NCBI GenBank assembly: GCA_016700135.1
Contig: CP065004.1
Location: 1,200,001 to 1,232,000 of the forward strand
DNA: 32,000 nucleotides
From: Candidatus Saccharimonadota bacterium
GTDB lineage: Bacteria > Patescibacteriota > Microgenomatia > UBA1406 > GWC2-37-13
Direction: 5' to 3'
The position numbers and the translations under genes were made by a program. The notes below the pieces were generated by a model, which was given only the letters and a program-made list of their open reading frames with translations, did not search any database and had not been told where the DNA came from. This document shows, piece by piece, positions 6,875 through 22,013 of the stretch (its first letter is position 1; the number at the start of each line of letters is the position of its first letter).

Positions 6875-7993
6875 TGAATAAGTTACGAAAGATATGGCAC
6901 TCATAGGGAACTAACATCTATGAGTAAATGGGGAGGAGATCAGCTTCGAGTAATTAGGAGTTATGACTGGCAGTACAATAGAGATCTTATGAAAAAGATA
7001 CGATCTCTATCAGACTACAATCAGTCAGATGTAGCACAAATCAGAAACGATGTTCTGACATTTGCAGAGAAGTACGGGATACAAGCTGCAGTTGATGCAT
7101 ATGGGATATCACGAAGGACATTGTTTCGATGGAGGAAGAGACGGCGAGATTCAGAAGGGCAGTTGGATAGCCTGATACCAGAGACAACCAAGCCAAAGAC
7201 ACCCCGACGTATGGAGACTCACCCGAAGGTCATATCCTTTATCAAAGAGATTCGAGAACAATACTTTTGTTTGGGAAAGGAGAAGATCAAGCCCTTACTT
7301 GATGAGTATTGCCTACAGGAAGGAATTTCAACTATATCTGAGTCAACCATTGGAAAAGTGATCAAAAGACACAACCTGCAGCGCAAGACCTACCGGATCT
7401 ATCACAATCCAGCAAGTGGCTTTGCAAAACGGAAAGTAAAGTACCGACAGAAGGTCAAGCGGTCTCCCAAGGTGGAAGATACCGGATACATTGAGATTGA
7501 TACCATCACGAAGTTTGTACACGGAATCAAGCTGTATGTCTTCAATGCAGTGGACATCAAACTCAAATTCCAGTTCTCCTACGGATACTCAAAACTCAAC
7601 AGCCGAAACGGTGCTGATTTTATGAGAAGACTGGAACTAGTATACCCAATACAAGATGGTATAAAAACCATACAAACAGATAACGGCCTCGAGTATCTGG
7701 GAAACTTCCATGACTATCTGGAAGAAAACAATATCCCACACCTCTTTATCTACCCCAGATGTCCCAAGATCAATGCCTTTATTGAGCGAGCAAACAGAAC
7801 ACTCCAGGAAGAATTTATGAACCCCTACATCTATACCAAGTGGACCGGTATCGGATCATTCAATCGTCACCTTATTGAATACCTCGTCTGGTACAATACA
7901 AAGCGAGTTCACAAAAGCCTGAACAATATTTCACCTATGGATTACCTATTATCTATTTTACCTAAAGAGTGCCATATGTATGGAACTCATACA
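6875..7993 (+). mobile_element. IS481-like insertion sequence, copy 1 (1119 bp)
   Basis: Identical by visual comparison to 25521..26639. Imperfect terminal inverted repeats: IRL TGAATAAGTTACGAAAGATATGGCACTC, and the reverse complement of IRR TGTATGAGTTCCATACATATGGCACTC. Single rve/DDE transposase ORF. No clean target-site duplication (left flank ..ACTATC, right flank CACTAT..). Confidence 0.9.
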
Positions 7994-8020
7994 CACTATT
8001 TCATTTATGTAAAAAATTAG
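6920..8020 (+). CDS. IS481-family DDE (rve) transposase
   Basis: 366 aa. N-terminal HTH region (ISRRTLFRWRKRRR). DDE triad contexts IEIDTITKF, IQTDNGLEYLG and FIERANRTLQEEF. C-terminal YNTKRVHKSLNNISPMDYL. The ORF runs through IRR, and its last 9 codons and stop come from flanking DNA. Confidence 0.9.
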   Translation: MSKWGGDQLRVIRSYDWQYNRDLMKKIRSLSDYNQSDVAQIRNDVLTFAEKYGIQAAVDAYGISRRTLFRWRKRRRDSEGQLDSLIPETTKPKTPRRMETHPKVISFIKEIREQYFCLGKEKIKPLLDEYCLQEGISTISESTIGKVIKRHNLQRKTYRIYHNPASGFAKRKVKYRQKVKRSPKVEDTGYIEIDTITKFVHGIKLYVFNAVDIKLKFQFSYGYSKLNSRNGADFMRRLELVYPIQDGIKTIQTDNGLEYLGNFHDYLEENNIPHLFIYPRCPKINAFIERANRTLQEEFMNPYIYTKWTGIGSFNRHLIEYLVWYNTKRVHKSLNNISPMDYLLSILPKECHMYGTHTHYFIYVKN

Positions 8021-8033
8021 CTATATTTAACTT

Positions 8034-8279
8034 ATGTCTAATACAGAATATTTAAAGCTAAAACTAGAGTTAGTAAATAAACTAGCTAAATACATCGCAG
8101 AGCAACCTGAACTCCTGAAGAAGTACTCAGGGTATTCTTATGTAATTTATACGACTAGTAAAGAGTTTAATAAGAAAAATAGTAATCTTATCAAGAGCCT
8201 AAAAGAAGAAAACAAAAAAATTGTGAAGGCGACATTTATAGATCAATCAAATGACTGGTCGTTCGCCCCTTTAAGTTAA
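8034..8279 (+). CDS. Hypothetical small Lys-rich protein (first ORF of the low-GC island)
   Basis: 81-aa ORF with AT-rich codon usage like the adjacent R-M genes. No recognisable motif. Convergent with hsdR. Confidence 0.4.
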   Translation: MSNTEYLKLKLELVNKLAKYIAEQPELLKKYSGYSYVIYTTSKEFNKKNSNLIKSLKEENKKIVKATFIDQSNDWSFAPLS

Positions 8280-8459: not shown

Positions 8460-11400
8460 CTAACTACTCGATATCCCAAAAAATCTTTCAAAAAATTTTG
8501 TCAATTTATCAATTACTGTTTCTCTCTTTTTTGTTCTTTCACCTGTTGGTGTAAATCGAGATACAGGGGGAAGAACTCTTGTAAGCTCAGTACCAGATGT
8601 AGAAATATTCCCATTCCTAAAGGCATTTTTTATGAATTTGTAGGTAGCATCTCGGTCGAGGTTTTCTTTTTCAATTATTTGTTCTAGTTCCTCAACTTTT
8701 TTGCCTTCAACAAAATTTCTCCAGTCATCTTCAACTACAGAGTGAACATCCAAAGTTGAAATAAATTGATTAATAAGGTCTTTTTTGTTTCTGAGTTCAA
8801 CACTTGAGTCGATGGCTTTATTTATATCAATCAGTACTTCTTTGTTTTTTGTATGACTCTCATGATATTTCTTGATCAGCTGAAGAATATAATCAATATT
8901 AATATCCACTTGCTTGATAAGCTCCATTTCGAAAACTACATCATCATTTACATTTTCTTTCTCAACAGTAGCGGTATTTCTAAACTCATTGTAAAGATCG
9001 ATGTAGGCACTGTGATAATCTTGTACATCTCGATCAGTAAGTATCTCGTTTCCCGCAAATTCATCAAATGTTGTTAAAATATTTCTAAGTCTCAGAATTG
9101 AGCCATAGAGCTTGATGAAATCTTTTTGATCCTGCTCACCTAGAATTCGTTCACCAACAGGGAATCTAGATTGCAGCTCTGCTATAAGATCAACATAGCC
9201 TCGAACTTCTTTACCTTTATCCGAATAACCATTGTAATAATCTGAATATGCCTTTAAGAGGACAATGCCGCTTGCCTCCTTGTCTCCAAATAGCGAGAGA
9301 GATTCATTAGTTGCTTTTTCCAGATTTCGAAAGCAAACAATGTTTCCAAATGTTTTGACACTGTTAAGAATTCTATTTGTTCTAGAAAATGCTTGGAGCA
9401 GGCCATGCAAACGTAAATTTTTATCTACCCAGAGTGTATTCAGCGTTGTTGCATCAAATCCAGTAAGGAACATGTTCACGACAATCAAAATATCTACCTC
9501 ACGGCTTTTTACTCGTTCACTCACGTCTTTGTAGTAATTCTGAAACTTGTCTGAAGAAGTGTCAAAAGATGTTCCAAAATGTTTGTTATAGTCCTTGATC
9601 GCAGCTTCAAGAAAATCTCGAGAACTTTGATCGAGTCCACTTGTGTCTTCTGAATTCTCATCTACCATGCCATCAGCATCCTCGTCATTGACCCCAAAGC
9701 TATAGATGAGTGCTATTTTAAGTTGTTTATCTGAGGGAAGATCTGCGAGTTGTTTTTTAAACTCTGCATAGTATGTCTTTGCAAACTCAATGGATGAAAC
9801 GGCAAAAATTGAGTTAAAGCCTGCAAGGCGTCTATCTTTTATTTTATAAAAACTATTTCTTTTAGTTTTCTGGTCAAAATGCTCTCTGATGTAGGTGACA
9901 ATATTTGATATGCGCGTCGGATCAGAAAGTATTGCCTCACGATCGATATCACTGACTTTTTTGTCCTCAATATCTTCTGCTTCTCGAACTGTTGAAATAT
10001 AGTCCACCTTAAAAGGCAGAACATTCTTATCAGCGATTGCATCAACAATAGTATAGATGTGTAACTTTTCTCCAAAGGCTTGCTCAGTTGTTTTTAAATC
10101 AGGTCTGCCACTCGATGAAGCATTGATAGCAAAGATTGGAGTGCCCGTAAATCCGAATATATGATACTTAGTAAATGCTTTTGTGATTGCAGAATGCATG
10201 TTACCAAACTGTGATCTGTGGCATTCATCAAATATTAAAACTACATGTCCATCATAAATTGCATGACCGTTGTTTCTTCTAATGAATCGATCAAGCTTCT
10301 GAATTGTAGTTACAATTATTCGAGCATTTGGATTCTCGAGCTGTTTCTTTAAAATTGCCGTACTTGTATTGCTATTCGCAGCACCCTTCTCAAACTTGTC
10401 GTATTCGCGCATTGTTTGGTAATCGAGATCTTTTCTATCAACAATAAATAAGACCTTGTCGATGTACGGTAACTTACTTGCAAGTTGTGCAGTTTTGAAA
10501 CTGGTGAGCGTTTTACCAGAGCCAGTAGTATGCCAAACATACCCACCAGCTTCAGTTGTTCCCATCTTTTTGTAATTAGTACTAACTTCAATTCTGTTAA
10601 GTATTCTCTCCGTTGCGACGATTTGGTATGGTCGCATCACAAGTAGGAGCTTGTCTGTGGTAAATACACAATAACGAGTGAGGATATTGAGTAGTGAATG
10701 TTTTGCAAAAAATGTTTTGGCAAAATCCATGAGATCTGTAATGGGCTTATTGTTGGCGTCAGCCCACCAGCTGGTAAATTCGTAGCTGTTGCTCGTTCTT
10801 TTCCCTTTATTTACAGTCCCTTGTCTAGAATCCTTTATATGTTGAGATCGAGTCGTGTTGCTGTAGTACTTCGTATGAGTGCCGTTTGATATCACAAACA
10901 ATTGGACATACTCAAAAAGTCCTGATGCTGACCAAAAACTCTCTCTTTGATATCGATTAATTTGATTGAAAGCCTCTTGAATAGCAACACCTCTTCGCTT
11001 GAGCTCGATATGCACTAGAGGCAGTCCATTTACCAAAATTGTCACATCATATCTATTTGCCCGTTCACCTTCATCGGTAGAGTATTGATTTACCACTTGT
11101 AAAACATTGTCGTGGATAGTGTCTTTCTTGAGGAGATAAATATTCTTTACTGTGCCGTCATCACGAGAAAGGTTTTTAATATAATCCTCTTGAATCGTCA
11201 AAGTTTTTTCTGCAATGCTTTGATTGGGATTGGCGAGTTCGCTAGTAAAGAATCTTTCCCATTCCGAATCTGTGAAAGTAAATGCATTCAGTTTTTCCAG
11301 TTGAGCACGTAGGTTTTGTACTAAATCTCTTTCTGTTTTTATTCGAATATATTCATATGCCTGTGATTCAAGTTGTTTAATAAATTCTTTCTCAAGTTCT

Positions 11401-11513
11401 GCCTCTGTTTGGTATGCAGCATCTCGTACAACACTGGCATCACGTACATATTCGGATACCACAGTACTTTGAGGTCCTTCTGCTACTAGGTTGTACTTAT
11501 AATCAGTTTTCAT
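8460..11513 (-). CDS. hsdR: Type I restriction enzyme, R (endonuclease/translocase) subunit
   Basis: 1017 aa. N-terminal PD-(D/E)xK-like block DVTILVNGLPLVHIELKRRG. SF2 motor motifs TGSGKT (motif I), FDECHRSQ (motif II) and GFTGTP. Overlaps the hsdS stop by 11 nt. Confidence 0.95.
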   Translation of the reverse strand: MKTDYKYNLVAEGPQSTVVSEYVRDASVVRDAAYQTEAELEKEFIKQLESQAYEYIRIKTERDLVQNLRAQLEKLNAFTFTDSEWERFFTSELANPNQSIAEKTLTIQEDYIKNLSRDDGTVKNIYLLKKDTIHDNVLQVVNQYSTDEGERANRYDVTILVNGLPLVHIELKRRGVAIQEAFNQINRYQRESFWSASGLFEYVQLFVISNGTHTKYYSNTTRSQHIKDSRQGTVNKGKRTSNSYEFTSWWADANNKPITDLMDFAKTFFAKHSLLNILTRYCVFTTDKLLLVMRPYQIVATERILNRIEVSTNYKKMGTTEAGGYVWHTTGSGKTLTSFKTAQLASKLPYIDKVLFIVDRKDLDYQTMREYDKFEKGAANSNTSTAILKKQLENPNARIIVTTIQKLDRFIRRNNGHAIYDGHVVLIFDECHRSQFGNMHSAITKAFTKYHIFGFTGTPIFAINASSSGRPDLKTTEQAFGEKLHIYTIVDAIADKNVLPFKVDYISTVREAEDIEDKKVSDIDREAILSDPTRISNIVTYIREHFDQKTKRNSFYKIKDRRLAGFNSIFAVSSIEFAKTYYAEFKKQLADLPSDKQLKIALIYSFGVNDEDADGMVDENSEDTSGLDQSSRDFLEAAIKDYNKHFGTSFDTSSDKFQNYYKDVSERVKSREVDILIVVNMFLTGFDATTLNTLWVDKNLRLHGLLQAFSRTNRILNSVKTFGNIVCFRNLEKATNESLSLFGDKEASGIVLLKAYSDYYNGYSDKGKEVRGYVDLIAELQSRFPVGERILGEQDQKDFIKLYGSILRLRNILTTFDEFAGNEILTDRDVQDYHSAYIDLYNEFRNTATVEKENVNDDVVFEMELIKQVDINIDYILQLIKKYHESHTKNKEVLIDINKAIDSSVELRNKKDLINQFISTLDVHSVVEDDWRNFVEGKKVEELEQIIEKENLDRDATYKFIKNAFRNGNISTSGTELTRVLPPVSRFTPTGERTKKRETVIDKLTKFFERFFGISSS

Positions 11514-12741
11514 ATTCTTTAAAAGTTAGTAGTTTATTTCTATAGTATTCATATTGTTTTCGTCTAGCAGCAAGCTCTGCTGGCAAACCTACAGAAATAT
11601 CATTCACCAAAGCATCAAATTTGTCTAGGATTGATACGATTCGTTCTTGTTCTTTGTCAGATGGTATCGGAATAATTGCCTTAGCTAATCCTCTATCGTT
11701 AATCGCAGATATTTTCCCAGATGAGACATACCGCTTAATTTGTGATCGAAAATTATTAGTTCTAAAAAAGTAAGAAACATATTTCGGATTTAGTTTGTGA
11801 GAAAAGGCAAAACAGGCATCATGAATAACTACATCTGAATTACCTAACCATGCTACTGCATTACCAATATCCTCAATAGTTTCACCTGCTGCAACAAGAA
11901 CAACATCGCCGTAATGTGCAGTTCTCAATCTCGATGCCAAATCGGGACTAATAAATGACTTGGTTTTTTCTGTCCAAACATTATAGTATGTATACATTTC
12001 TCCATAATGGATGCATGGAAAACCCTCCTCGAGAATATCATTTTTAACAAATCTTTTTCCTCGAGTAAAGTGACCGATTTCACCTAATGGTTGATGGTCA
12101 GCATTTTCAAGTTTGAACAAACCATTAATGTAATACTCATACTGCTTCTTTCTTGCTTCTAGTTCTGCTTCTAGTTCTGCTTCTAGTTCTGTAAAGGTAT
12201 CAATGATTTTTACAATTTCTTCTTGGATAGGGAGAGGCGGGAGGGGGATTTTAAACTTCTTTAAATTTTTCATTGAAATACTCGCAACTGTTGAGCCATC
12301 TGCCTGCGCAACAATCTTATCGATCAAATTATGAAAAATATAAATCAGGTATCTACTGTTCAAAATCTTATGATTCGGAGTAATCGCATATACTCCCTCC
12401 TTAATATTCCAATCAAGTGGAGCATCTTTTACTAGCGCTGTGCGGCCGATAGTTCCGGTGCCCGAAAACAAGACATCACCGACTTTCAACCTTGAACGCT
12501 TCTGAATAATTGATAATCCGTCATCATCAACTTTGTCAGTTTTTTCTGAATATTTAATATCAAACCCTGCTAACTCACGCACAGTTATATACCAGTTGCT
12601 CCCATCTGGTGGGTTGAGTTTAAAATTTTGTCTAGGATTAAGTCCAGTTCTTAGATCAGTAATTACTCCTCCCAACTCCAAAAACTCCACACCCTTAGGA
12701 CAAAGTTCAGTAATGAGTTTTTTGAATTTGTTATTTGTCAT
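11503..12741 (-). CDS. hsdS: Type I restriction-modification specificity subunit
   Basis: 412 aa. Two variable target-recognition halves are separated by the central helix TELEAELEAELEARKKQYEYY. The protein ends in the matching conserved helix ELAARRKQYEYYRNKLLTF. Confidence 0.93.
   Translation of the reverse strand: MTNNKFKKLITELCPKGVEFLELGGVITDLRTGLNPRQNFKLNPPDGSNWYITVRELAGFDIKYSEKTDKVDDDGLSIIQKRSRLKVGDVLFSGTGTIGRTALVKDAPLDWNIKEGVYAITPNHKILNSRYLIYIFHNLIDKIVAQADGSTVASISMKNLKKFKIPLPPLPIQEEIVKIIDTFTELEAELEAELEARKKQYEYYINGLFKLENADHQPLGEIGHFTRGKRFVKNDILEEGFPCIHYGEMYTYYNVWTEKTKSFISPDLASRLRTAHYGDVVLVAAGETIEDIGNAVAWLGNSDVVIHDACFAFSHKLNPKYVSYFFRTNNFRSQIKRYVSSGKISAINDRGLAKAIIPIPSDKEQERIVSILDKFDALVNDISVGLPAELAARRKQYEYYRNKLLTFKEYEN
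12155..12190 (-). repeat. Three perfect tandem 12-bp repeats (GCTTCTAGTTCT on the + strand) encoding (ELEA)x3 in the HsdS central spacer
   Basis: Units at 12155-12166, 12167-12178 and 12179-12190 are identical. They are in frame and translate to ELEAELEAELEA. Confidence 0.95.
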
Positions 12742-12800: not shown

Positions 12801-13292
12801 CTATTTAATATCAGAATTCACATATTCTCTTAAGATAGAAATTGATTCTCTTAACTTTTCATCAAAATTTAATTTTTTATTTGCTGGATAGTGGATACAG
12901 TTTCGAATATATGTGGGAAGCGTCACTTTTGCATCTTTGGTACTTTTCTTGCTCGTGTCTTGATAATCTTTAGCAAGCTTCTTTATTTGCTTAAAGTACT
13001 GGTCATCAAAAGGATTTATGCCAATGTTTTCGATGTGCTTTGTTTCATCCACTTCTTTAGAATTGCACTCCTTAACGTACCAATCTCTAAGCTTGTCATA
13101 AAGCTCATTGTGATATTGCTCGTCTAGTATATCGAATACCTCGAATGAAACTTCTGCATAACTTGTTAGTTTTTTATCAAATTGAGTTGCATGGGTATGT
13201 TCTTCAAAAGACTCATCGGCTTTCTTCTCTACTCGAAAATATCTGCCAAGATCTTTTTTATCAATCATGTAATTGGAGTGTGTTGCAAACAA
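12801..13292 (-). CDS. C-terminal part of the ABC/OLD-type ATPase (H-loop plus unrecognised ~140-aa module), separated by an apparent frameshift
   Basis: 163-aa ORF opened by TTG. It begins (L)FATHSNYMID, which is the H-loop (xxTHS) expected about 35 residues after Walker B of the upstream ORF. An in-frame TAA lies 4 codons upstream. The rest has no recognisable domain. Confidence 0.6.
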   Translation of the reverse strand: MFATHSNYMIDKKDLGRYFRVEKKADESFEEHTHATQFDKKLTSYAEVSFEVFDILDEQYHNELYDKLRDWYVKECNSKEVDETKHIENIGINPFDDQYFKQIKKLAKDYQDTSKKSTKDAKVTLPTYIRNCIHYPANKKLNFDEKLRESISILREYVNSDIK

Positions 13293-14362
13293 GACATCAT
13301 ATTATTTTTTTTGTTATTAGTAATTCCGATCAACTGAGTGAGCAAGTATTCTTGAGCTTTAGGATGCAAATGTGTCTCAGGTTCATCAAGCAAAAGAATT
13401 GTGTTCTCTAATTCCTCATTCTTATTCTCAGCCGCAATAGTCAATAAAAATGAAACAAACTGTTTAAAACCATCGCTTCGCATGTCAGAAGTTTGAGCCT
13501 TGCCTTTACTATCCAAGTCCTTGACATGAAAATTGATATGACCATCCATTATTTTAAAGGTAATCTTAACTGGATGATTTGGCCAAGCCGACTTAATATG
13601 TTCTGTAACATTATTTGCAAGAGTCTCTTCGAGAAATTCGCAATCTGTTGTATCAGCCAGGGCATCAGATAAACTTTGATTTATTTCTTCTTCCTTGATT
13701 GATGCCAGCAAAAAGCAATTTCTAAGTGGAATAGAAATACTGGTATCCGCAATAAATTGAGCAATATTAATTGGTTTAGAAATTAAATATCTGTCCTCGG
13801 CGGTCCAAAAAATTGTCTTATGCACGTTGTCTTTGAAAAAGCTAAGGATTTCGTCTGTACTTGAAATCTTAACTTCTTGATCATTCTGAATAACTGTTAT
13901 GGAGAAAATAGGTTCTGAGCTTGCAGTTTTAAAACAAATTCGAAAGTTAACAATTAGATCACTAGAGACTGAGTTATATGTGGGCTTCACAATTTCGTGT
14001 TTTTTAGATTCAGCAGGGATATTTTCCACTATTTCTGTTTCTGAAGGCTTTTCTAAACACATGTTTTCTTCTCTATTGTTTATAAGTTCATAAAGTTTTT
14101 GATCATCGGCAGGTGTTATCTCATATGAGTAAGTAACACATATATCTTTTTTTTGACGAAAGTCCTTTGATAAAGGAAGTTTCGTTCCGGATGCATCGAG
14201 CAAACCATCCTTTAAACCAATAGCTTTTAAGATAGATGATTTACCAGCTTCATTAATGCCAATTAGCCCATATGTAAAACTATCATCGTCTCTTACTTCT
14301 ATTGTAAAAGGTATTTTCTTTACACTTCTGTAATCTTCTATAGTAATTTTGTGAAGTTTCAT
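13265..14362 (-). CDS. ABC/OLD-type (AAA_15/AAA_21-like) ATPase, N-terminal part, embedded in the hsd operon
   Basis: 365 aa. The MKLHKITIEDYRSVK start is typical of OLD/AAA_15 proteins. Walker A is GINEAGKSS, the signature-like motif is RSDGFKQFVSFLL, and Walker B/D-loop is ILLLDEPETHLHP. The ORF ends 26 codons later without an H-loop. It starts 9 nt after the hsdM stop. Confidence 0.8.
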   Translation of the reverse strand: MKLHKITIEDYRSVKKIPFTIEVRDDDSFTYGLIGINEAGKSSILKAIGLKDGLLDASGTKLPLSKDFRQKKDICVTYSYEITPADDQKLYELINNREENMCLEKPSETEIVENIPAESKKHEIVKPTYNSVSSDLIVNFRICFKTASSEPIFSITVIQNDQEVKISSTDEILSFFKDNVHKTIFWTAEDRYLISKPINIAQFIADTSISIPLRNCFLLASIKEEEINQSLSDALADTTDCEFLEETLANNVTEHIKSAWPNHPVKITFKIMDGHINFHVKDLDSKGKAQTSDMRSDGFKQFVSFLLTIAAENKNEELENTILLLDEPETHLHPKAQEYLLTQLIGITNNKKNNMMSCLQHTPIT

Positions 14363-14371
14363 AATGATTAT

Positions 14372-15952
14372 CTAGTTATTTTCAATTTCTTTAACAATCT
14401 CATCAATCGCAACTCTTAGCTCATGTTGTCTTTTTACAATCTTTTCAATCTCTGCGTTAAGTTCTTTAATATCAATAACTTCTCTTGTATCTTCTGCAAC
14501 AACATAACTTGAGACAGAGATGTTGTATTCATTCTCTGCAATTACTTTGTTGTCTACCAGCTTTGCGAAATACTCTTGATCTTCGCGCTTGGAATACGCA
14601 TCAAGAATTTTTAATCTATTTGCCTCACTGAGCTTATTCTTATTGCCACCCCTTACAAATTCAGCAGAGGCATCTATAAAGAGTGTTTTGTTATCTTTTT
14701 TGCTCTTTTTAAGGACAATAATACAAGTTGCTATAGTTGTTCCAAAGAATAAGTCGGGAGGGAGTTGGATAACCGTATCAACATAATTGTTCTCAATGAG
14801 GTACTTACGGATTTTTTGTTCTGCACCACCTCTATACAACACTCCTGGAAACTCAACGATTGCAGCCGTGCCACTAGTTGAAAGCCACGACAGCATATGC
14901 ATCGTAAAGGCTAAATCAGCTTTACTTTTTGGAGCAAGTACACCTGCTGGAGAAAACCGAGGATCATTGATTAAAAGCGGATTTGCATCACCTTCCCATC
15001 TTATCGAGTAGGGAGGATTTGAGACAATTGCATCAAAAGGTTCATCATCCCAGTGCTTTGGATCAGTAAGTGTATCACCATGTGCAATGTCGAAATTATT
15101 ATAATTTACATCATGTAAAAACATGTTGATACGACAAAGATTATACGTAGTGAGATTTATTTCCTGACCATAAAATCCCTGTCGGACATTTTCTTTCCCT
15201 AGAACCTTTGCAAATTTGAGAAGAAGGGATCCAGAACCACATGCTGGATCATATACTTTGTTGACTTCCTTTTTTCCAATTGTTGTGATCTCTGCAAGCA
15301 ATTCACTGACTTCTTGAGGGGTGTAAAACTCTCCTCCAGACTTTCCAGCATTTGAAGCATACATCGTCATCAAGAACTCATATGCATCACCGAATGCATC
15401 AATTGTGTTGTCTGAGTAGTTGCCAAGACGTAGTCCCGCAATCGCTTCAAGAAGTTTTACAAGCTTTTGATTTCTCCTTTCTACCGTATTTCCAAGTTTC
15501 CCCGAGTTCACATCAATATCGTCAAAGAGTCCTTTAAAGTCATCTTCACTATTTGCACCTTTTGCAGAGGCTTCGATGTTATTAAAGATTGATGCTAGAG
15601 TTTCATTGAGATTTGCATCGTTGCGTGCCTTTTTGACGACATTTTGGAATAACTCACTTGGTAAAATATAAAAGCCTTTTTCTTTGACAGTATCTGTTCT
15701 ACCAAACTCAGCTTCTGAGTCCGATAACGATTTGTAATCAAATTCAGGTTTACCTGCTCTACGCTCTTCAGCATTGATATAATTGGTCAGGTTCTCACTG
15801 ATAAAGCGGTAGAAAAGCATTCCCAAAACATATTGTTTAAAATCCCAACCATCAACACTACCTCGAAGGTCATTTGCTATCTGCCAGATTGTACGATGAA
15901 GTTCTGCACGTTCTTGTTCTTTTGTCATGTTAGTATTAGGTTTTATTGCCAT
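14372..15952 (-). CDS. hsdM: Type I restriction-modification N6-adenine DNA methyltransferase subunit
   Basis: 526 aa. HsdM N-terminal helical domain, SAM-binding motif I VYDPACGSGSLLL and catalytic motif IV SNPPYS. Confidence 0.95.
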   Translation of the reverse strand: MAIKPNTNMTKEQERAELHRTIWQIANDLRGSVDGWDFKQYVLGMLFYRFISENLTNYINAEERRAGKPEFDYKSLSDSEAEFGRTDTVKEKGFYILPSELFQNVVKKARNDANLNETLASIFNNIEASAKGANSEDDFKGLFDDIDVNSGKLGNTVERRNQKLVKLLEAIAGLRLGNYSDNTIDAFGDAYEFLMTMYASNAGKSGGEFYTPQEVSELLAEITTIGKKEVNKVYDPACGSGSLLLKFAKVLGKENVRQGFYGQEINLTTYNLCRINMFLHDVNYNNFDIAHGDTLTDPKHWDDEPFDAIVSNPPYSIRWEGDANPLLINDPRFSPAGVLAPKSKADLAFTMHMLSWLSTSGTAAIVEFPGVLYRGGAEQKIRKYLIENNYVDTVIQLPPDLFFGTTIATCIIVLKKSKKDNKTLFIDASAEFVRGGNKNKLSEANRLKILDAYSKREDQEYFAKLVDNKVIAENEYNISVSSYVVAEDTREVIDIKELNAEIEKIVKRQHELRVAIDEIVKEIENN

Positions 15953-16650: not shown

Positions 16651-17664
16651 TCACGCGCTGAATTCAGAAAAATGTGCTCCGTCAGTGGCCATGTAGAGTT
16701 TGAGATTCATCGCACGCGCGAATGCGACTGCATTTCCATTATATACCTGTGCAGCGTAATCATCTGATTGTTGTGAGGCTTTCGAATATACGCGATTAAA
16801 CCGTGGGGAGAAATCATTGTCAAAGAAATCCCGACACTTTAGCGCCCACTGCTGTATCCTCGCCTGCAAAATGTCAGGTTGATTGCCTACTTCCTCCAAT
16901 AATGTACGCTGATATTCTTGAAGGTTTTGCTCTGAGTTTGCATTGAAAGCGGCCAGCATATGCTCAACTTTCCCCTTTCTTTTTCGCAGTTCATCCATTC
17001 GTTTTTGTTCTTCAGGAGAAGCTCTGTAGAAATCTCGTAATTCTTCAAATTCCGTCAGTCCCATAACAGGCGTCTCTGCGGTAGCAATAGCCAAAATCTG
17101 ATAATCCGGACAAAGAACTGTTGAAGCATAATCATAGGGCATTTCGTCACTGAAAGCAGGAGTTAACATAGAACTAAAATCCTGGATTGAAAAAAAAGCA
17201 TTTTTAGGGTGAGTATGAATATTTATGACAGGAATCCCTTTTTCCCGAATCACCATATTGTAATCATTAGAAGTCGATGTAATATCCCCAAAAGATAAAG
17301 GGGTTCTTTTGAGATTCCCTGATTCCCTATCAAAGAAAATTATGGTCGAACGTTCTCCGGCTGCTTTCTGATAGTAAATAGTTTTTAGCTCTTCTAACAA
17401 TGTTCTACCTTCAGGTGTCGAAAGTAAAGCATACTGTTCTGTCAATGCAGCAAGATAAGAGTCTGCATCAGGCACCTCAGGAACATCTTCATAATTTTCA
17501 TATAATTCCGTATGAACTCCTTCAAACACAGAAAAATCCAGCTGAGGAGGCAATTCATCAAAATGAAGTCTTCGATTTCTGAAAATGAGATAACTCAATA
17601 CATCTTCATTTGAGACGGGTGGTTGTTCATACTTTGTGATGGGATATGATTTATGTTCTGTCAT
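16651..17664 (-). CDS. Hypothetical protein with a JAB/MPN-like metal-binding motif and a helical C-terminal region
   Basis: 337-aa ORF. VINIHTHPKNAFFSIQDF (aa 147-164) resembles the JAMM motif HxHx7Sx2D, for example HTHPTQTAFLSSVD in AMSH, but is one residue shorter. A candidate upstream Glu lies in FDRESG. Confidence 0.6.
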   Translation of the reverse strand: MTEHKSYPITKYEQPPVSNEDVLSYLIFRNRRLHFDELPPQLDFSVFEGVHTELYENYEDVPEVPDADSYLAALTEQYALLSTPEGRTLLEELKTIYYQKAAGERSTIIFFDRESGNLKRTPLSFGDITSTSNDYNMVIREKGIPVINIHTHPKNAFFSIQDFSSMLTPAFSDEMPYDYASTVLCPDYQILAIATAETPVMGLTEFEELRDFYRASPEEQKRMDELRKRKGKVEHMLAAFNANSEQNLQEYQRTLLEEVGNQPDILQARIQQWALKCRDFFDNDFSPRFNRVYSKASQQSDDYAAQVYNGNAVAFARAMNLKLYMATDGAHFSEFSA

Positions 17665-19511: not shown

Positions 19512-20336
19512 ATGGCAATTGAAAGCTTTTTCCGTCGTTTGGGACTTCGAAGAGATCCCACAGCTCAAGATTATGGTGCTGCGGCAAGCATACTCGTCTA
19601 TTCCAATCACGGATCGGAGCCCGCTGAAAGAAAGCAGAAGATATCCAAACAGGAACTCGCACAGTATCCGGGCCTCGAACAATACCCCGAAGCACTTGAA
19701 TATTTAGCCCGGATCGGAGTATCACCGGCAGATTTACAATCTATCTATCCTGATTTTGAAGACTTCGCAGAAAGTGAATTTGATGACCGCGGACATGCAT
19801 TCAGATACATGGAAGGTCCCTACCAGCACTATCGGCTTGATCGTGTGATCTTCCCATCAGATACGCATTACCCCTATACCCTTGCAGTCGACCGGCAGAT
19901 GAGATATGCCCCCCACAGGCAGCATTCCTTCGGTCTTCTTTTGATGCCCGAAAGACGTATCCGAATGAATGTCTACCCTGACACCTCAGTATCCCTGCAG
20001 CTTCAGACTGCGACTCCTGACGATCTCACGGACATCGCTACCTTTTTCATCGACCCTGACGGCACAGTCGATTACAGTGAACATGCGATGCGTGCGAGTC
20101 ATTTTCTTCATGATGATGAAAGGAAACATCAGGAACGTCCCGTACCGCAGCGGCTCGACACCCTCACCGACCCGAGCGCCCTACAGTCCATTCCGTATTT
20201 TTCACAGGAATATCTAGAACAGCAGTGGGACCTTACTGAAGCAGATATTGCCGTACCGAGTCAGGAGCTTGCACGAAAGATTCTGACTGCGCCTGTCGAG
20301 ACGGGTGTGGACCTCAGAGCCATGCTTGCTCAGTAA
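19512..20336 (+). CDS. Hypothetical protein
   Basis: 274-aa ORF with no recognisable motif and no signal peptide. Followed directly by repeat copy A. Confidence 0.55.
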   Translation: MAIESFFRRLGLRRDPTAQDYGAAASILVYSNHGSEPAERKQKISKQELAQYPGLEQYPEALEYLARIGVSPADLQSIYPDFEDFAESEFDDRGHAFRYMEGPYQHYRLDRVIFPSDTHYPYTLAVDRQMRYAPHRQHSFGLLLMPERRIRMNVYPDTSVSLQLQTATPDDLTDIATFFIDPDGTVDYSEHAMRASHFLHDDERKHQERPVPQRLDTLTDPSALQSIPYFSQEYLEQQWDLTEADIAVPSQELARKILTAPVETGVDLRAMLAQ

Positions 20337-20531: not shown

Positions 20532-20690
20532 CAAATTTATTTTCCTTTCATTCCAAACTTTGAGCCATAAGTTCATCGTCTCATGGACGGGTTTCAGATC
20601 TTATTGAAAGACAGTGCCGAACTCCCAATCCCTCTCTCAGACTCAATTCTCCTTTACAAACTATATATTATAGGCTATAATACATATTCA

Positions 20691-22013
20691 ATGTGTAATT
20701 CTAAAGAAATTGCTATATTCGGCAACGGGCCGGGAAGCATATCCAGTGCAGATGCACTCACAAACTCCGGTCACCGGGTGACCCGTATTGTCCCCGATAC
20801 ACCGCAAGGCAACAGCCGCTCGATTTATTCTACCTCAACCGGTATTTATCGTGATGTAATGGACACCTATTGTCCTCCCGAATATCGTAAACCGCTCCCT
20901 ACCATGCGAATCTATACCGTCAACGGTACTGATTTCAGCGTCGAGACAGGCACTGACTATTTTATGGTCAATTACCCGAAGCTGACGGAAGATGCAAACG
21001 CCAGACTGAACGGCAAAGAAAGTATCACGGTAGAGAGCTATTCATCAAATGAGCTCAGGCATGTGAAGGTACGGGAAAACCAGAACGGAGTCGAAGTCAC
21101 CATAGACGGGGGCAGAAGGCAGTTTGATGCCGCAATTGACAGCACCGGGGCGGGCAGATCCATCATGGCTCACGTCGCACCGGAAGTCGCAAAACGCGAT
21201 AAAATCGCTGAATATGTCTATGCAGGGCAGTATCCGGGAACCTTGGCTCAAGATGAAATGATACTCGTCTGGGATAAGACGGGAGCTACCTCCTGGATAA
21301 ACCCCAGCATTTACACGGGACCGAACGGTGAACCGCTTCTTGATATCGTATATTCGGCATGGGGATGGGAATCCTTTTTTCCCCAATTTCTGAATGAAGC
21401 AGACACCAGACTCAGGCACCTTGTCGATTTTGCGGAAACAATACCGGGCCTTCAATTGATTGACAATCACCCCATCGAACTTACGGCAGGAAAAATACTT
21501 TCCGAAGGATTGTACAAGCCTGACACACAACATGTATATGCAGTCGGTGAAGCGGCAGGCGTCGCCAAGCCGAAAAGCGGTGAATCATTCAACAGGACGC
21601 TCCTTAGCGGTGTCGTCACGGCAGAGGCAATCGATCAGAATCATACTCCTCTGCAGGTACATGACAGACTCAAGCAGTTCTGGCCGAACGACTATCAGTT
21701 TCTGGCTTTCACGCTTGCGAGACTGCGTGAACAGCATACGGGCAATACCAGCAAACTGATGGATACCATGGGCAACTGGTTCAAAAACGGATCAGTCGAT
21801 CAGGAATTTATCAAACAAATGGAAGATTACATCATAAAAGGAAGCATTTCTCCGGCTTTGCTTCAGCGTTTCGTGACTAATCCGGTATTTTTGCAGACAG
21901 TCGTGCACACCATGCTGACCTACGCCAGAATCAAGGTATTCGGCATGAGCTCATTCCCCCGGAAATGGACACTCGGAAACGTACCCCAACAGGCCCCTGC
22001 ATACAGCTCGTAA
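20691..22013 (+). CDS. FAD/NAD(P)-dependent oxidoreductase, geranylgeranyl reductase/lycopene cyclase-like
   Basis: The ORF track starts at 20583. The ATG at 20691 puts the Rossmann motif (EIAIFGNGPGSISSA) at the N-terminus and leaves a TATAAT-containing AT-rich stretch upstream. Other motifs are AIDSTGAGRS and the family-typical YAVGEAAGVAKPKSGESF. Confidence 0.65.
   Translation: MCNSKEIAIFGNGPGSISSADALTNSGHRVTRIVPDTPQGNSRSIYSTSTGIYRDVMDTYCPPEYRKPLPTMRIYTVNGTDFSVETGTDYFMVNYPKLTEDANARLNGKESITVESYSSNELRHVKVRENQNGVEVTIDGGRRQFDAAIDSTGAGRSIMAHVAPEVAKRDKIAEYVYAGQYPGTLAQDEMILVWDKTGATSWINPSIYTGPNGEPLLDIVYSAWGWESFFPQFLNEADTRLRHLVDFAETIPGLQLIDNHPIELTAGKILSEGLYKPDTQHVYAVGEAAGVAKPKSGESFNRTLLSGVVTAEAIDQNHTPLQVHDRLKQFWPNDYQFLAFTLARLREQHTGNTSKLMDTMGNWFKNGSVDQEFIKQMEDYIIKGSISPALLQRFVTNPVFLQTVVHTMLTYARIKVFGMSSFPRKWTLGNVPQQAPAYSS

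Follow-up and report, generated by a model that had tools for sequence, protein, structure and literature searches.

To our knowledge, PrrC is almost the only mechanistically understood suicide module that is wired into a type I restriction operon. In the OLD family (P2 Old, Gabija GajA and the retron Eco8 effector), an ATPase is followed by a C-terminal TOPRIM nuclease within a single polypeptide, while RloA/RloB, AbiL and PARIS (AriA/AriB) are two-gene systems that pair an AAA_15/21-type ABC ATPase with a separate TOPRIM or DUF4435 partner. PARIS is triggered by an anti-restriction protein. In Campylobacter, rloAB is found inside type I restriction-modification (R-M) islands (PMC2928727), and experiments have confirmed guilt-by-embedding for other ABC-ATPase systems (bioRxiv 10.1101/2024.01.29.577857). 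Embedded ABC-ATPase defences are thus already an established concept. Here we analysed a 32,000-nucleotide (nt) window of a Candidatus Saccharimonadota genome (contig CP065004.1, positions 1,200,001 to 1,232,000), in which an ABC-ATPase gene lies between hsdM and hsdS of a type I R-M operon. The gene belongs to an uncharacterised, widespread family with an unclassified C-terminal domain (hereafter, the tail), a second group beside PrrC that is much larger and phylogenetically broader, stems from an unrelated ATPase lineage and occupies an equally stereotyped slot (hsdM-X-hsdS). With confidence that is about even, we read it as a frameshifted copy of a single-gene defence-type protein, a PrrC-like effector gated by its ATPase.

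The likeness to PrrC and RloC is one of architecture and setting. As in those enzymes, a small helical domain (~110-130 amino acids, aa) follows an N-terminal ABC-type ATPase at the C-terminal end of the same protein, the family motif, Rx4H in which a polar residue follows the Arg, is the HEPN signature used by PrrC and RloC, and related loci also harbour embedded RhuM and Fic/DOC genes; nesting in a type IC-like hsd operon recalls PrrC, and the stand-alone family members recall RloC. In contrast, neither domain shows sequence or profile similarity to PrrC/RloC, the ATPase being of the AAA_15/AAA_21 (OLD-like) type and not AAA_13, the clade of the window protein has a Tyr at the canonical His position, and the gene occupies the hsdM-hsdS interval, not the one from hsdS to hsdR as with PrrC. 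AAA_13, which we take to be the Pfam model covering PrrC and RloC, was absent among the Pfam matches at E<=1; no PrrC/RloC model stood among the best 25 PADLOC matches, and the tail alone matched nothing. Since neither domain matches, the protein is not PrrC or RloC.

By sequence, the closest ATPases are those of the OLD family, with which the protein also shares the order of ATPase first and effector last in one polypeptide; a Klebsiella relative with the same tail matches the PADLOC Old model at 1e-50 over residues 2-364. However, the Old and GajA models align to the ATPase alone, no TOPRIM match was obtained for the tail in Pfam, NCBIfam or PADLOC, and an unrelated helical domain of ~110 aa stands in place of the nuclease; lacking TOPRIM, the protein is not an OLD or GajA. 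The AAA_15/21-type ATPase is shared with RloA/RloB, AbiL and PARIS as well (AbiLi, 1e-14 to 1e-19), whereas the candidate effector is here fused and of non-TOPRIM type. No partner gene is present at the window locus, where the gaps to hsdM and hsdS are just 9 nt and 59 nt, and for this reason PARIS, AbiL, RloAB and Septu do not apply. The embedded candidates of Payne et al. 2024 (HEC-01 to HEC-04, PDC) similarly combine an ABC ATPase with a variable effector in a multi-gene defence operon, but neither the protein nor its tail is covered by any HEC or PDC model of PADLOC 2.0.0.

The whole operon is on the minus strand, and all coordinates are given in window numbering. The ATPase gene is split over two open reading frames (ORFs): one of 365 aa at 14362..13265 (ATG at 14362), homologous to its relatives from residue 1 to ~354, and a second-frame ORF of 163 aa that the ORF list places at 13292..12801. 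Once the frameshift was repaired in silico, a 520-aa protein was obtained, which homologues cover over 99-100% of its length. The first ~395 residues form an ABC ATPase that belongs to the OLD/AAA_15-AAA_21 clade. The four motifs that an earlier note on this DNA had pointed out were all located, in order: the Walker A motif GINEAGKSS at 14260..14234 (N37, E38, G40 and K41 invariant in 118 homologues), the ABC signature-like RSDGFKQFVSF at 13480..13448 (R295, S296, G298, F299 and Q301 invariant), the Walker B motif with D-loop, ILLLDEPETHLHP, at 13399..13361 (D326, E327, P328, E329, H331 and H333 invariant), and, in the second frame past the break, the H-loop FATHS at 13289..13275. The catalytic ATPase motifs are all invariant among the 118 homologues.

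That note had also proposed an ABC/OLD-type ATPase nested in the hsd operon, and the library searches and structural models agree with it. Pfam returned AAA_15 (3e-20; 73.6 bits against a cut-off of 32.1) and AAA_21 (1e-18), and PADLOC returned, on the ATPase part only, Old (5.6e-24), AbiLi (1e-14) and HEC-01A (~1e-13), along with AriA, GajA, PtuA and NsnB. Sequence-profile searches of the PDB matched the ATPase to OLD (6p74, 3e-9) and to PtuA. The AlphaFold2 model of P0001, an intact homologue 70% identical to the window protein, reached a predicted local distance difference test score (pLDDT) of 91 and a predicted template modelling score (pTM) of 0.85; this full-length model, in which the ABC head fold is apparent, matched SMC/Rad50 heads, PtuA and GajA in the PDB at E ~1e-13. 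All of these matches end at about residue 400, and those to PADLOC and NCBIfam models lie far under the curated family cut-offs.

The tail beyond it (13181..12804, 126 aa; AlphaFold2 pLDDT 90.8) is a family-specific helical domain. Apart from a small hairpin (2+2 residues), the AlphaFold2 model is all-helical with five helices, in the order short helix, long helix starting with D-Y-H-N-E-L-Y, third helix, hairpin, short helix and long final helix. The short helix after the hairpin holds T-L-P-T-Y-I-R-N-C-I-H-Y, and the final helix holds L..S-I. In agreement with the earlier note, which had been unable to assign the C-terminal module, the last ~125 residues matched nothing in Pfam, NCBIfam, PADLOC, PDB or BFVD. 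At E<=1 the tail found no match in Pfam, NCBIfam or PADLOC; no known effector domain was found reproducibly in these three libraries, whether the query was a single sequence, a set of 35 or 51 members or a concatenation of domains; sequence-profile searches of the PDB with three alignments gave ATPase matches or noise; and no TOPRIM, HNH, DUF4435/RloB or DUF3696 domain was found in the protein.

In an alignment of 51 tails, which spans the whole superfamily at 34% mean identity, the sole invariant residue is the Arg of the short helix, and three further elements are at least 90% conserved: the His at +5 from this Arg, the His of D-Y-H-N-E-L-Y, and L..S-I. In the window, the start of the YHNELY helix lies at 13115..13098, its His (H418) being at least 90% conserved in the wide family, and the R-[N/H/D]-x-x-x-H motif reads RNCIHY (12905..12888; Arg R487, preceding His H491), with Tyr for the canonical His at position 492. 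Among 134 representatives the motif was R-N-x-x-H-H in 59, R-H-x-x-H-H in 20, R-N-x-x-D-H in 14, R-N-x-x-N-H in 7 and R-N-x-x-H-Y in 4; the family motif is thus Rx4H with N, H or D after the Arg. HEPN domains are defined by Rx4-6H with N, D or H after the Arg (PMC3710099, section 6), and this metal-independent RNase site is common to PrrC, RloC, RNase L/Ire1 and Cas13 (PMC3710099). The size, helical content and motif of the tail agree with the ~100-120 aa helical bundle of HEPN, the window copy itself having RNCIHY. Three of the 51 members gave weak Pfam matches (E ~0.015) to the HEPN-clan families DUF3644 and HEPN_MAE_28990. The expectation that the effector would be unlike the described ones is therefore borne out in part: no library or fold match was found, whereas the family tail shows the Rx4H motif that is the HEPN signature of PrrC and RloC.

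The family formed by this ATPase and tail is large, and none of Pfam, NCBIfam and PADLOC 2.0.0 lists it. A word-indexed search with the repaired 520-aa sequence recovered 681 relatives, mostly from Candidate Phyla Radiation (CPR) lineages, many of them 460-545 aa long, with 99-100% query coverage and 43-70% identity. A profile of the tail run against 1.84 billion proteins identified 934 cluster representatives (50% identity) at E<=1e-3, of which 341 were at E<=1e-10, and nearly always placed the tail at the C-terminal end of an ABC ATPase of 440-550 aa, or on a fragment. In a scan of one genome per species, full-length members were found in CPR bacteria (Saccharimonadales, Nomurabacteria, Paceibacterota, Adlerbacteria, Peribacteria), in Bacteroidota (Aestuariivivens sediminis, Lacinutrix, Pseudofulvibacter, Pedobacter and others), and in Nitrosomonas, Methylotenera, Prosthecochloris, Leptonemataceae and Bdellovibrionota. 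The tail also occurs in more distant proteins encoded on plasmids of Klebsiella quasipneumoniae (WP_064155835.1, reading ...FIRNHIHHPEN...), Lactobacillus helveticus (pLH1) and Weissella hellenica. The Klebsiella protein (487 aa, annotated as 'AAA family ATPase') is encoded between two ISNCY transposase genes (L087:1500-7034), near the gene of a TIR-domain protein, on the conjugative IncFIB plasmid pA2508-emrE. Two representatives carry the tail on longer proteins, P0211 (769 aa) and P0241 (663 aa), and the N-terminal part of the latter matches the PADLOC candidate PDC-M62A (1e-25).

Linkage to type I R-M was surveyed with HsdM, HsdS and HsdR profiles built from the window and iterated on the fetched loci, hsd genes being counted within 3 kb. 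They were present at 17 of 19 informative loci of the RN..HY clade, to which the window belongs, at 12 of 15 in the RN..xH clade and at 11 of 30 in the RH..HH clade; when at least 2 kb was demanded on both sides, the total was 18/43. Homologues are thus preferentially linked to hsd genes, in the same slot as in the window: the predominant layout is hsdM-X-hsdS, in which adjacent genes are spaced by -13 to +28 nt (negative values being overlaps), and it occurs beside HsdR proteins of clearly different length (~770 aa and ~1,050 aa). On long contigs, the close relatives P0004 and P0010 repeat the M-X-S-R order of the window, and their HsdR is likewise of the EcoR124_C type. The RN..HY clade is the most tightly hsd-embedded of all, and its variant motif is rare among diverse representatives (4/134).

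Roughly every second member of the wider family stands by itself, in genomic contexts that are unrelated. The 63%-identical homologue P0018 lies outside any hsd operon, directly after an EcoRI-type methylase gene and a GmrSD_N/HNH gene (L084:3704-7590), and adjoins the type IV secretion genes of a conjugative element. No conserved partner gene was found in the stand-alone loci, whose neighbours include genes for a Fic protein, an HTH-M78 protein, an IS1595 transposase, SecF and an aminotransferase fragment. Because linkage is weaker in the sister clade (11/30), about half of the family stands alone and P0018 is outside hsd, the protein probably acts autonomously and in this would be closer to RloC than to PrrC. 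Stand-alone relatives also speak against an obligatory R-M partner, such as the type I complex that keeps PrrC latent until a phage anti-restriction factor releases it to cleave tRNA-Lys; guarding of the present protein by R-M, as the earlier note proposed it, is conjectural.

Beside family members, hsd operons also carry other cargo: RhuM (L088:1833-2858), Bro-N with Fic/DOC and an HNH protein (L004:5148-8332), ORF6N (L125:4974-5915), a Schlafen-AlbA_2/HATPase_c_4 protein (L017:8742-9950) and a C39-like peptidase (L106:7330-7890). Co-embedding of RhuM and Fic/DOC has been described around PrrC/RloC-like ABC-HEPN genes (PMC3710099, Table 1), and the co-embedded RhuM, Fic/DOC, ORF6N, Schlafen-AlbA_2 and HNH genes match those surroundings.

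Taken as a PrrC-like effector, the protein would work as follows. The ABC head would be a dimerising, nucleotide-gated sensor and switch that controls the C-terminal domain, the putative effector, in which a small Rx4H helical domain would replace the TOPRIM of OLD. The near-invariant Arg-x4-His and the upstream His would fit a metal-independent (HEPN-like) RNase, whose activation may shut down translation or otherwise abort infection, a functional likeness to PrrC and RloC. As cargo in the hsdM-hsdS slot the gene would be co-expressed with first-line restriction, R-M itself presumably not being required, since many relatives stand alone. More tentatively, and well short of an even chance, the tail may be an unclassified effector (a HEPN RNase that has diverged very far, or else a new fold) of a widespread single-gene ABC-ATPase immune family of at least 900 clusters (50% identity) in CPR, Bacteroidota, Proteobacteria, Chlorobiota, Spirochaetota and the Klebsiella, Lactobacillus and Weissella plasmids. 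This family would have recurrently entered the hsdM-hsdS junction in type I R-M systems that are unrelated to one another and would act there as a second defence line, its His-to-Tyr clade having changed its chemistry or become R-M-dependent.

Several results weigh against reading the protein as an effector of this kind. When the tail model was searched against the PDB and BFVD with Foldseek, no match was obtained (E>4, TM score ~0.2) and no HEPN structure appeared. The weak Pfam matches to HEPN-clan families did not recur with concatenated domains. With hhalign, the tail was compared to E. coli K-12 RnlA, to the DUF3644 protein of E. coli 042 (EC042 island) and to a DUF3644 alignment, and probabilities of 1.3%, 0.2% and 0.5%, respectively, were returned; the DUF3644 profile is shallow (17 sequences, 55-72% identity), which makes the last of these weak negative evidence. 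HEPN homology is thus statistically unsupported, and HEPN-like chemistry is suggested by the motif, not by membership of the clan. In the window clade, where the preceding His is kept and Tyr takes the canonical position (RNCIHY), RNase chemistry may have been altered or lost. No homologue was found in the phage collections INPHARED and IMG/VR, and the copy studied here is frameshifted, most likely inactive and probably a pseudogene. A phage or plasmid origin of the gene had been considered as well and was rejected, as INPHARED and IMG/VR hold no member and PLSDB holds only distant relatives.

The frame break suspected in the earlier note is real. By codon comparison with four homologous loci (L081-L084) and three-frame translation, it was placed at 13301..13293, where intact homologues read ...NNKKNN[I/V/L]V[L/F]FATHS and the window reads AAT AAT AT[GA]T GTC TTG, corresponding to a 2-nt insertion or a 1-nt deletion. 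The last ~10 residues of the 365-aa ORF (MMSCLQHTPIT) are consequently out of frame, and the H-loop, the last ATPase beta-strands and the C-terminal domain are encoded in the second frame (13301..12801, stop at 12803..12801). Repair through a length change (A7/A9) of the nearby A8 run (13312-13305) was ruled out, and a -1 ribosomal slip on this run would give no full-length product, since in both cases a second-frame TAA (13304-13302) directly follows the run. The product as sequenced lacks the H-loop and the whole tail. The public annotation holds only this 365-aa product (P0003, 'AAA family ATPase [Candidatus Roizmanbacteria bacterium]'), which is identical to the ORF. Given the frameshift and the Tyr in place of the canonical His in its clade, the copy is unlikely to be a working defence module in this genome.

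It is conceivable, but we doubt it, that the frameshift arose by error in sequencing or assembly and that the genome in fact encodes an intact protein of 519-520 aa. The source is a metagenome-derived CPR genome, hsdM, hsdS and hsdR of the operon are all intact, and both halves of the ATPase gene are otherwise stop-free and 62-70% identical to intact homologues over 100% of the length. However, the indel lies outside a homopolymer and cannot be corrected at the A8 run, the deposited annotation is that of the truncated protein, and gene decay is common in the family: among the 118 family loci fetched from other assemblies, about 12 carry a gene that is split, truncated, internally deleted or interrupted by an in-frame stop (L001, L018, L019, L020, L034, L123, L129, L135, L137, L140, L141 and L160). 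As hsd genes are sometimes split in such loci too (for example, hsdM in L094 and hsdS in L119), this decay is not evidence of specific counter-selection against the ATPase.

Somewhat less probable still is that the tail is a sensor, regulatory or oligomerisation module and not an enzyme, the protein being a type I R-M accessory that, for example, senses anti-restriction proteins or modulates HsdR, or the ATPase itself being the effector. The tail has no fold or profile match to any nuclease, the clade most tied to hsd (17/19) is the one without the canonical His, and the pTM of the full-length model suggests that the tail may be packed firmly on the ATPase. Such a module is hard to reconcile with the many stand-alone relatives, which have no conserved partner and would need an output of their own; moreover, the near-invariant positions hold Arg, His, His, Asn and Ser, not the side chains of a hydrophobic interface, and the characterised ABC-ATPase defence proteins of the clade are all coupled to a nuclease. 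We consider it very improbable that the protein is an unrecognised member of a described system (PrrC/RloC, OLD, Gabija GajA, PARIS AriA, AbiL/RloA, Septu PtuA or Menshen NsnB), because the PADLOC and NCBIfam matches that favour this (Old, AriA, AbiLi, GajA, PtuA, NsnB, MAD3 and retron Eco8, at 1e-10 to 1e-24) are confined to the ATPase (~residues 1-400) and far under curated cut-offs (41 bits against 300 for TIGR04435; 24 against 500 for PtuA), and the tail with no match at E<=1, the missing TOPRIM, HNH, DUF4435/RloB and DUF3696 domains and partner gene, and the lack of a match to AAA_13, presumably the PrrC/RloC model, all speak against it.

If functional, a PrrC-like protein of this family would offer a tractable single-gene system for studying how ABC-ATPase sensors gate small effector domains, would allow anti-restriction proteins to be tested as its trigger, and would mean that such layered defence reaches into the very small CPR genomes. 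Carriers that are in culture or of clinical relevance include Aestuariivivens sediminis (strain S-DT1-15, NZ_JAKMCP010000004.1), Lacinutrix sp. and, for a more distant relative, the Klebsiella IncFIB plasmid. For the window itself, the finding is a more modest one, a decayed copy.

The host operon begins with hsdM (15952..14372, 526 aa; Pfam N6_Mtase 3.6e-114, HsdM_N 2.5e-20), followed by the 9-nt spacer (14371..14363), the ATPase gene, the 59-nt spacer (between 12801 and 12741), hsdS (12741..11503, 412 aa; Methylase_S 3.4e-36, in two stretches) and hsdR (11513..8460, 1017 aa), which overlaps hsdS by 11 nt; every coordinate of the gene order given in the earlier note matches the sequence. HsdR contains, by Pfam, HSDR_N (8e-44), SWI2_SNF2, T1R_D3-like (9e-60) and EcoR124_C (5e-69), and the central region of HsdS holds a perfect (LEAE)x3 repeat (12186..12154, TELEAELEAELEARKKQYEYY), similar to the variable 4-aa repeats that set the spacer length in type IC specificity subunits. 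With HsdM, HsdS, HsdR, an EcoR124-type HsdR C-terminus and a central short tandem repeat in HsdS, the features expected of type IC are all present. The resemblance to this type noted previously is thus upheld by the EcoR124_C domain and the (LEAE)x3 repeat, and on these two features a type IC-like assignment is reasonable. No terminator-like site was found between hsdM and hsdS, which makes co-transcription of the ATPase gene with the hsd genes plausible.

The G+C content of the operon (8-16 kb) is 31-38%, against 42-50% in the flanks, and a gene for an rve-type (IS481/IS3-like) transposase (6920-8020) borders the operon beyond the 3' end of hsdR; by its low G+C content and this bordering transposase, the hsd operon is predicted to be a horizontally acquired island. 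Around the ATPase gene itself, a search for flanking repeats marking a mobile cassette gave only short, chance-level matches. Three ORFs adjoin the island, at 16651-17664, 19512-20336 and 20583-22013 (337, 274 and 476 aa, respectively), with no Pfam match at E<=0.001. Between the 3' end of hsdR and the transposase gene lies a small DUF5647-like ORF (8034-8279), its Pfam score being under the curated cut-off.

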